This document shows positions 1,526-1,752 of a stretch of DNA of 64,000 nt, piece after piece. Every line of letters begins with the position of its first letter. The stretch's first letter is position 1. Source of the stretch: Escherichia phage BYEP02; sequence record OR757454.1; one strand, 5' to 3'. The translations under genes and the position numbers were made by a program. The notes beneath the pieces are model-generated. The model saw only the letters and a program-made list of their open reading frames with translations, was not told where the DNA came from and ran no database searches.

Positions 1526-1599
1526 GCGGATATCGTATAATGGTATTACCTCAGACTTCCAATCTGATGATGTGAGTTCGATTCTCATTATCCGCTCCA
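1526..1599 (+). tRNA. tRNA-Gly (anticodon TCC), CCA encoded
   Basis: Acceptor gcggata/tatccgc, anticodon loop ctTCCaa. Confidence 0.85.
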
Positions 1600-1752
1600 A
1601 TTTAATTTACTCCGTGTAGCTCAGTTTGGTAGAGCGTCTGCTTTGGGAGCAGAATGTCGCAGGTTCAAATCCTGCAATTTAATTTACTCCGTGTAGCTCA
1701 GTTTGGTAGAGCGCCTGATTTGGGATCAGGAGGTCCAAGGTTCAAATCCTTG
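1599..1752. repeat. 77-bp tandem unit pair (1599-1675 / 1676-1752) over tRNA-Pro; 9 differences, all stem changes compensatory
   Basis: 5' 38 nt identical, 3' half differs at 9 positions that keep anticodon-stem and T-stem pairing. Confidence 0.85.
1610..1675 (+). pseudogene. tRNA-Pro-like partial copy (anticodon TGG) lacking a pairing 3' acceptor strand
   Basis: D-arm, anticodon arm tctgc-tttggga-gcaga and T-arm present; T-stem followed directly by next unit. Confidence 0.6.

Follow-up and report, generated by a model that had tools for sequence, protein, structure and literature searches.

The window analysed here, a 64,000-nucleotide stretch of record OR757454.1 (Escherichia phage BYEP02), takes in the stretch from tRNA genes to replication genes of a T4-like phage (Tequatrovirus). 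ARAGORN places ten tRNA genes at 1434-2532, including a tRNA-Pro(tgg) at 1687-1761, and the set carried by this lineage (Leu, Gly, Pro, Ser, Thr, Met/Ile-CAT, Tyr, Asn, His and Arg) is not that of T4. The ORF at 820-1427, immediately 5' of tRNA-Leu, is an HNH (homing) endonuclease according to the annotation of related RefSeq records, and in both T4 and PP01 a tRNA-Gln is found in its place upstream of tRNA-Leu. Beyond tRNA-Gly lie two directly adjacent 77-nt units (Table 1), each of which opens with the 11-nt spacer AATTTAATTTA, located 3' of tRNA-Gly, and runs on into tRNA-Pro sequence. Unit 1 constitutes the last 77 nt of the piece of sequence on its left and is cut directly 5' of the 3' acceptor strand, and unit 2 constitutes the first 77 nt of the piece on its right. 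The repeat is far above chance, with a TRF score of 257 at period 77 and 2.0 copies.

Table 1. Features of the tRNA-Pro locus and selected joins in the window (positions are those of the 64,000-nt stretch).
Feature	Coordinates	Strand	Content or basis
Neighbouring join, 77 nt x 2, 1 difference	629..782		TRF; absent from slur03
Left-hand piece: HNH endonuclease ORF, tRNA-Leu, tRNA-Gly, truncated tRNA-Pro	706..1675	+	Mostly non-slur03 haplotype
Upstream 77-nt unit (unit 1)	1599..1675	+	11-nt Gly-Pro spacer and first 66 nt of PP01/BYEP01-type tRNA-Pro(UGG)
Downstream 77-nt unit (unit 2)	1676..1752	+	Identical spacer and first 66 nt of T4/T2/slur03-type tRNA-Pro
Right-hand piece: tRNA-Pro, tRNA-Ser, start of tRNA-Thr	1676..1884	+	slur03 type
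Complete tRNA-Pro(UGG), sole intact copy here	1687..1761	+	ARAGORN; Rfam 66.8 bits; cloverleaf MFE -24.2 kcal/mol
Neighbouring join, 77/78 nt	1808..1962		TRF, sequences; absent from slur03
Join, 81-nt overlap, 3 differences	3163..3326		TRF period 81; absent from slur03
Join inside DNA polymerase gp43	45928..46083		gp43 split into 188-aa and 713-aa ORFs

Alignment of the two units over 77 columns bears out the description given in the earlier note, identity over the first 38 nt followed by differences at nine positions: columns 1-38 are the same, and the units diverge at columns 39, 43, 51, 55, 57, 61, 62, 76 and 77. Two pairs of the anticodon stem are changed on both sides (columns 39/55, U-A vs C-G; columns 43/51, C-G vs A-U), as are two pairs of the T stem (columns 61/77, G-C vs C-G; columns 62/76, C-G vs A-U), and the ninth difference, T/G at column 57, falls at an unpaired position of the variable loop. 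The observation that every difference keeps base pairing is correct, all paired positions remaining paired when the units are mapped on the cloverleaf (100% of cells), and none of 500 shuffles matches the observed pairing or covariation. To call all the changes compensatory is a slight overstatement, the term applying to eight of the nine, in four pairs, and not to column 57.

Unit 1 was also rightly described as devoid of a 3' acceptor strand and non-functional as written. When folded together with the sequence that follows, it retains intact D, anticodon (UGG) and T arms and forms no acceptor stem: the 5' acceptor strand is present, its 3' partner is absent, and the AATTTAATTT spacer comes directly after CCTGC. 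The unit thus falls short of the complete cloverleaf with a 7-bp acceptor stem that a functional tRNA displays. ARAGORN calls no tRNA over unit 1, and the Rfam tRNA model matches it only in part (1617-1675, model positions 8-63 of 71, 49.6 bits at a gathering score of 29), against a full-model match at 1687-1760 for the intact gene.

The search of the upstream unit against other tRNA-Pro genes that the earlier note had called for recovers a known allele. In a BLAST search of 50,697 phage records, unit 1 is identical at 77/77 positions to 44 of them, which include PP01, fPS-90, Lutter, VEc74, HY03 and BYEP01, and the match is to tRNA-Pro wherever annotated. It is an exact substring of BYEP01, PP01 and Lutter and not of slur03; unit 2 is an exact substring of slur03 and not of BYEP01 or PP01. 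Together with its 3' end, unit 2 shows 100% identity to T2, to at least 225 records, to slur03 and to the T4 tRNA-Pro gene (T4t005, NC_000866). The proposal made for the upstream unit, an orthologous tRNA-Pro of another, related phage and no corrupted copy, is therefore upheld: its nine changes reproduce a natural allele base for base, with unit 2 supplying the T2/T4/slur03 allele.

The 3' acceptor strand reads CGCGGAG in PP01/BYEP01 and TATGGAG in T4/slur03, and CGCGGAG is absent from unit 1, whose alignment to its natural allele stops at CCTGC. Over their full length the two alleles differ at 12 of 75 positions without a single broken pair (four compensatory pairs, one variable-loop base and three one-sided acceptor-stem changes, G-C/G-U and U-G/U-A), and each folds into a cloverleaf (-30.3 and -24.2 kcal/mol). 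Both alleles being functional tRNAs shaped by natural selection, the differences between the units look compensatory, and the pattern is ordinary structure-preserving evolution of orthologous tRNAs. A third tRNA-Pro(UGG) allele is carried by about 175 records, APTC-EC-2A for example, and departs from the PP01 type in having a T-stem U-G wobble and CAC in the acceptor strand. With this T-stem U-G, and with U-A rather than U-G in the acceptor stem, it is a wobble intermediate, and the Tequatrovirus tRNA-Pro(UGG) thus comes in at least three alleles set apart by changes of compensatory and wobble type. When IMG/VR was scanned with a degenerate pattern for hybrids of these alleles, one contig was returned.

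The earlier note was silent on the fact that the tRNA-Pro join is one of about 34 equivalent joins in the window. TRF and an independent scan identify 33 two-copy tandem duplications, 31 of period 77 and two of period 81, each with 2.0-2.1 copies and spaced 0.2-4 kb apart across the 64 kb. Their first copies start at 629, 1599, 1808, 3163 (81 nt), 4104, 6701, 7595, 8459, 10012, 11245, 13428, 15945, 18163, 19663, 22150, 24130 (81 nt), 26930, 29242, 30464, 31782, 33217, 36887, 40130, 42311, 42545, 43693, 45928, 50029, 53778, 54290, 56275, 58981 and 61851. The total of about 34 is reached with a further, irregular join at 30010, where, over a 33-nt indel, the overlap measures 109 nt on the left and 77 nt on the right. 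This last join (29901-30086, pinA region) contains a 52-nt exact repeat of period 109, and its left piece ends as slur03 type and its right piece starts as BYEP01 type, a polarity opposite to that of most joins. The two copies are identical in 10 of the 33 duplications and different in the remaining 23.

By BLAST the closest relative, slur03 (LN881728), is colinear with window positions 1-51498 except for a 77-nt back-step at each join, and it lacks all 28 joins that the retrieved part of its sequence covers. The best matches to window 1400-2600 align in three pieces, the window holding 154 (2 x 77) extra nucleotides, and the tRNA-Pro and Ser/Thr joins are likewise missing from the other close relatives aligned over this interval. 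Among 950 matching phage records none aligns unbroken across the tRNA-Pro join, the exact junction string has no match in viral, metagenome and genome contig collections, and none of three junction-spanning ORF products that were looked up is on record. We thus find an overlap of fixed length that recurs irrespective of gene content, with joins that the relatives lack and a junction string that the contig collections lack.

The joins on either side of tRNA-Pro are of the same kind. At 629, BYEP01 contains the upstream copy as an exact string and slur03 the downstream copy. The segment repeated at 1808 runs from the 3' part of tRNA-Ser across the spacer into the 5' part of tRNA-Thr; between 1865 and 1918 the join leaves a chimeric partial tRNA in which the 5' part of tRNA-Thr is fused to the 3' part of tRNA-Ser, with an Rfam tRNA score of 25.3 bits, under the gathering score. 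At 3163 the upstream copy is again an exact BYEP01 string. The 81-nt duplication there spans a G+C-rich hairpin with a T run after it (GGCTTAGCCCC...GGGGCTTTTT), 3' of tRNA-Arg, and one of its copies reads AG where slur03 and BYEP01 both read GA. In the T4 annotation the small stable RNAs rnaC and rnaD lie 3' of that phage's tRNA-Arg.

Placed on slur03 coordinates, joins fall within gp43, gp44, gp46, gp42, nrdD and many other genes; 77 is not divisible by 3, and the joins frameshift essential genes. As given, the longest ORFs of the window measure 713, 516 and 411 aa, and deletion of either copy at all joins raises these values to 898, 605 and 546 aa, which correspond to restored gp43 DNA polymerase, NrdD and gp46, respectively. 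Essential ORFs are therefore disrupted in the sequence as it stands and recovered once one copy is deleted per join, and no phage that carried such insertions could be viable.

To whom the copies belong is apparent from the 23 joins at which they differ. In 19 of the 23, slur03 contains the downstream copy as an exact string, and in none the upstream copy; BYEP01 (OR757453) contains the upstream copy exactly in 12 and the downstream copy in one. This split, slur03 downstream and BYEP01 upstream, indicates that the window was stitched from two genomes. Allele painting, carried out at sites at which slur03 and BYEP01 differ, extends the same division to the interior of the pieces: nearly all begin with a long pure slur03 run and then continue as BYEP01-like sequence or a third haplotype up to the next join. 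Exact slur03 matches have a median length of 1012 nt as prefixes of pieces vs 22 nt as suffixes, and 28 of the 32 complete pieces start as slur03 after the 77-nt back-step, with an exact prefix of 54-3,900 nt. Such base-for-base prefixes amount to 37,071 of 61,222 nt (61%). The joins at 18163, 42545 and 58981 lie between two slur03-identical pieces, and at several points inside pieces slur03 gives way seamlessly to BYEP01 where the two have only 8, 11, 47 or 73 identical bases in common. A left-right asymmetry of this kind, with pieces starting as slur03 and ending as a BYEP01 relative, is not expected of a strand-blind assembler and suggests one-directional or reference-anchored stitching.

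The two pieces that meet at tRNA-Pro follow this division. For the left-hand piece, BYEP01 is the best database match (99.4%, in a single piece, with five mismatches and one gap); relative to slur03 there are 14 mismatches over 968 aligned nucleotides, seven of them at tRNA-Pro sites, and the remaining two tRNA-Pro differences are the two unaligned terminal bases. Its painting reads S2 B7 S3 B7. The right-hand piece has no mismatch to slur03 and a single 1-nt gap in a T run, and all 16 informative sites are slur03-type. The non-slur03 parts are natural-looking in sequence: in a gp43 stretch inspected by eye (45508-45889), differences are spaced in multiples of 3 and ORFs are intact. A single GenBank phage was considered as their source and rejected, the best matches being slur03 at 98.2% over 10089-16021 and BYEP01 at 98.9% over 40207-42387. 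As no database record matches these non-slur03 parts better than 98.9%, the second source genome appears to be unsequenced.

These data strongly favor a model, which we regard as very probably correct, where pieces from two Tequatrovirus genomes follow one another head to tail in the window with a 77-nt overlap left untrimmed, and the window does not represent one natural molecule. The adjacency of the two tRNA-Pro units is a sequence-assembly artefact, with no gene duplication and no biological feature behind it: a non-biological join, at which 77 homologous bases occur twice, has put the alleles of two genomes in tandem. One source would be slur03 base for base, and the other a BYEP01-related phage outside the database. 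At 1675/1676, the piece from the second genome would stop inside its PP01/BYEP01-type tRNA-Pro gene and the slur03-type piece that follows would start 77 homologous bases earlier, so that the spacer and 66 nt of tRNA-Pro would appear twice, once per allele. The cause is likely to have been an assembly or contig-joining step with k = 77, or else reference-anchored stitching, presumably from a sample with two phages, one slur03-type and one BYEP01-related, or with slur03 serving as guide.

A usual k-mer size of SPAdes is 77. A plain de Bruijn overlap should nonetheless produce identical copies, yet 23 of 33 differ, two overlaps measure 81 nt, and restarts on slur03 are one-directional. Only 10 of 33 copy pairs are identical (at tRNA-Pro, 9 of 77 positions differ), so that the joins are no plain k-mer overlap within a single genome and involve two source genomes. 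Seamless switches on fewer than 77 shared bases are beyond a k = 77 graph and would represent either real recombination joints or alignment-guided splices. Overall, the traits that depart from de Bruijn behavior point to one-directional, alignment- or reference-anchored contig stitching. Two simpler rules for the boundaries were tried and rejected. Piece ends do not behave as SNP-induced branch points of a k = 77 graph, as differences lie at arbitrary offsets in the 77-mers, and slur03 and BYEP01 differ at 4 of 66 positions flanking the 77-mers vs about 3 by chance (an estimate). A rule in which the net indel of the piece before is added to 77 to give the overlap length fits the join at 1808 and fails in both 81-nt cases.

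Repeats of 77 bp at contig ends generated by SPAdes have been documented for phage genomes (PMC9409062). The joins described here resemble untrimmed k-mer overlaps of that assembler in their fixed length of 77 nt, in their two adjacent copies and in their presence at every piece boundary without relation to gene structure. They depart from the contig-end repeats, which are identical and sit at both ends of a contig, in being internal, in differing between copies in 23 of 33 cases, in measuring 81 nt twice, and in drawing their copies from two genomes with a left-right bias. The window also resembles a chimeric consensus or co-assembly of mixed strains, in that one sequence goes back and forth between the alleles of two related phages, although ordinary chimeras switch seamlessly and most pieces here restart as slur03 after a 77-nt back-step. 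A truncated tRNA copy that adjoins an intact tRNA gene is further reminiscent of the att-site duplications of integrated elements. In the latter it is the 3' part of the tRNA that is duplicated, and the inserted element with its integrase lies between the copies. The tRNA-Pro units, by contrast, repeat the 5' part in direct tandem without intervening DNA, the phage is lytic and T4-like, and no integrase is found in the annotated slur03 neighborhood.

Could the tandem nevertheless exist in a phage? A genuine partial duplication of tRNA-Pro could have arisen when co-infecting T-even phages recombined, unequally or illegitimately, within the recombination-prone tRNA cluster, so that a hybrid pseudo-tRNA came to lie upstream of the working gene. 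In its favor, both alleles are natural, phages with either allele share hosts, the region is non-coding for protein, and a 77-nt insertion here alone would be non-lethal. It has to be reconciled, however, with about 33 further two-copy joins of the same kind, frameshifts in gp43, gp44, gp46, gp42 and nrdD among them, with a constant 77-nt length for which there is no biological rationale, and with a junction that none of the 950 matching phage records crosses unbroken and that is missing from all three contig collections. We consider a genuine duplication highly improbable and, because its sibling joins hit essential genes and the junction occurs in no searched collection, excluded for practical purposes. 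It is harder still to credit that the junctions are physically real as products of co-infecting T-even phages that recombined through staggered joints of ~77 nt, keeping both parental versions of the overlap; were this so, the window would record heteroduplex-length recombination tracts genome-wide. Of comparably negligible probability is a corrupted copy, in which a simple duplication was followed by sequencing or consensus errors, or by random substitutions, in one of the copies. The ten exact duplications do imply that a plain duplication mechanism operates; nine changes that recreate the allele of 44 records base for base, stem positions that all remain paired to a degree that the shuffles never attain, and a variant copy that at 12 joins is an exact BYEP01 string nonetheless run counter to random error, and the first of these points excludes it.

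A more serious contender is a sub-variant of the stitching model itself, in which the sequence is an in-silico chimera, deliberate or inadvertent, with GenBank slur03 as backbone or guide, contigs of another phage spliced in by coordinates and the backbone resumed 77 nt too early. It differs only in where the slur03 sequence came from, and needs no slur03-type phage in the sample. The share of the window in slur03-identical prefixes and the single direction of the restarts speak for it, as do overlap lengths that shift at indels (77/78 at 1808; 109 vs 77 at 30010) and seamless switches with fewer than 77 shared bases. Against it, joins between slur03-identical pieces, such as those at 18163, 42545 and 58981, would be needless under pure backbone filling, and the three independent isolates slur03, slur08 and slur14 give the same match statistics over window 1400-2600, the one interval compared, which hints at a real co-isolated slur03-type phage, even though equal statistics do not show the three to be identical. 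On balance we lean against this sub-variant while regarding it as a tangible possibility.

Stitching of pieces from two genomes, by whichever route, matters foremost for data quality, and the whole window should be flagged as chimeric and overlap-duplicated. Annotation or comparative use of such a sequence would yield a spurious tRNA pseudogene and "split", frameshifted polymerase, nuclease and reductase genes, together with false tandem repeats and a false mosaic genome. The other 77-nt repeats, frameshifted genes and local "diverged copies" of this window are probably the same artefact. The real biology underneath, allele variation of tRNA-Pro, is modest and of a known kind: the three alleles are a small natural case of compensatory evolution via G-U intermediates.
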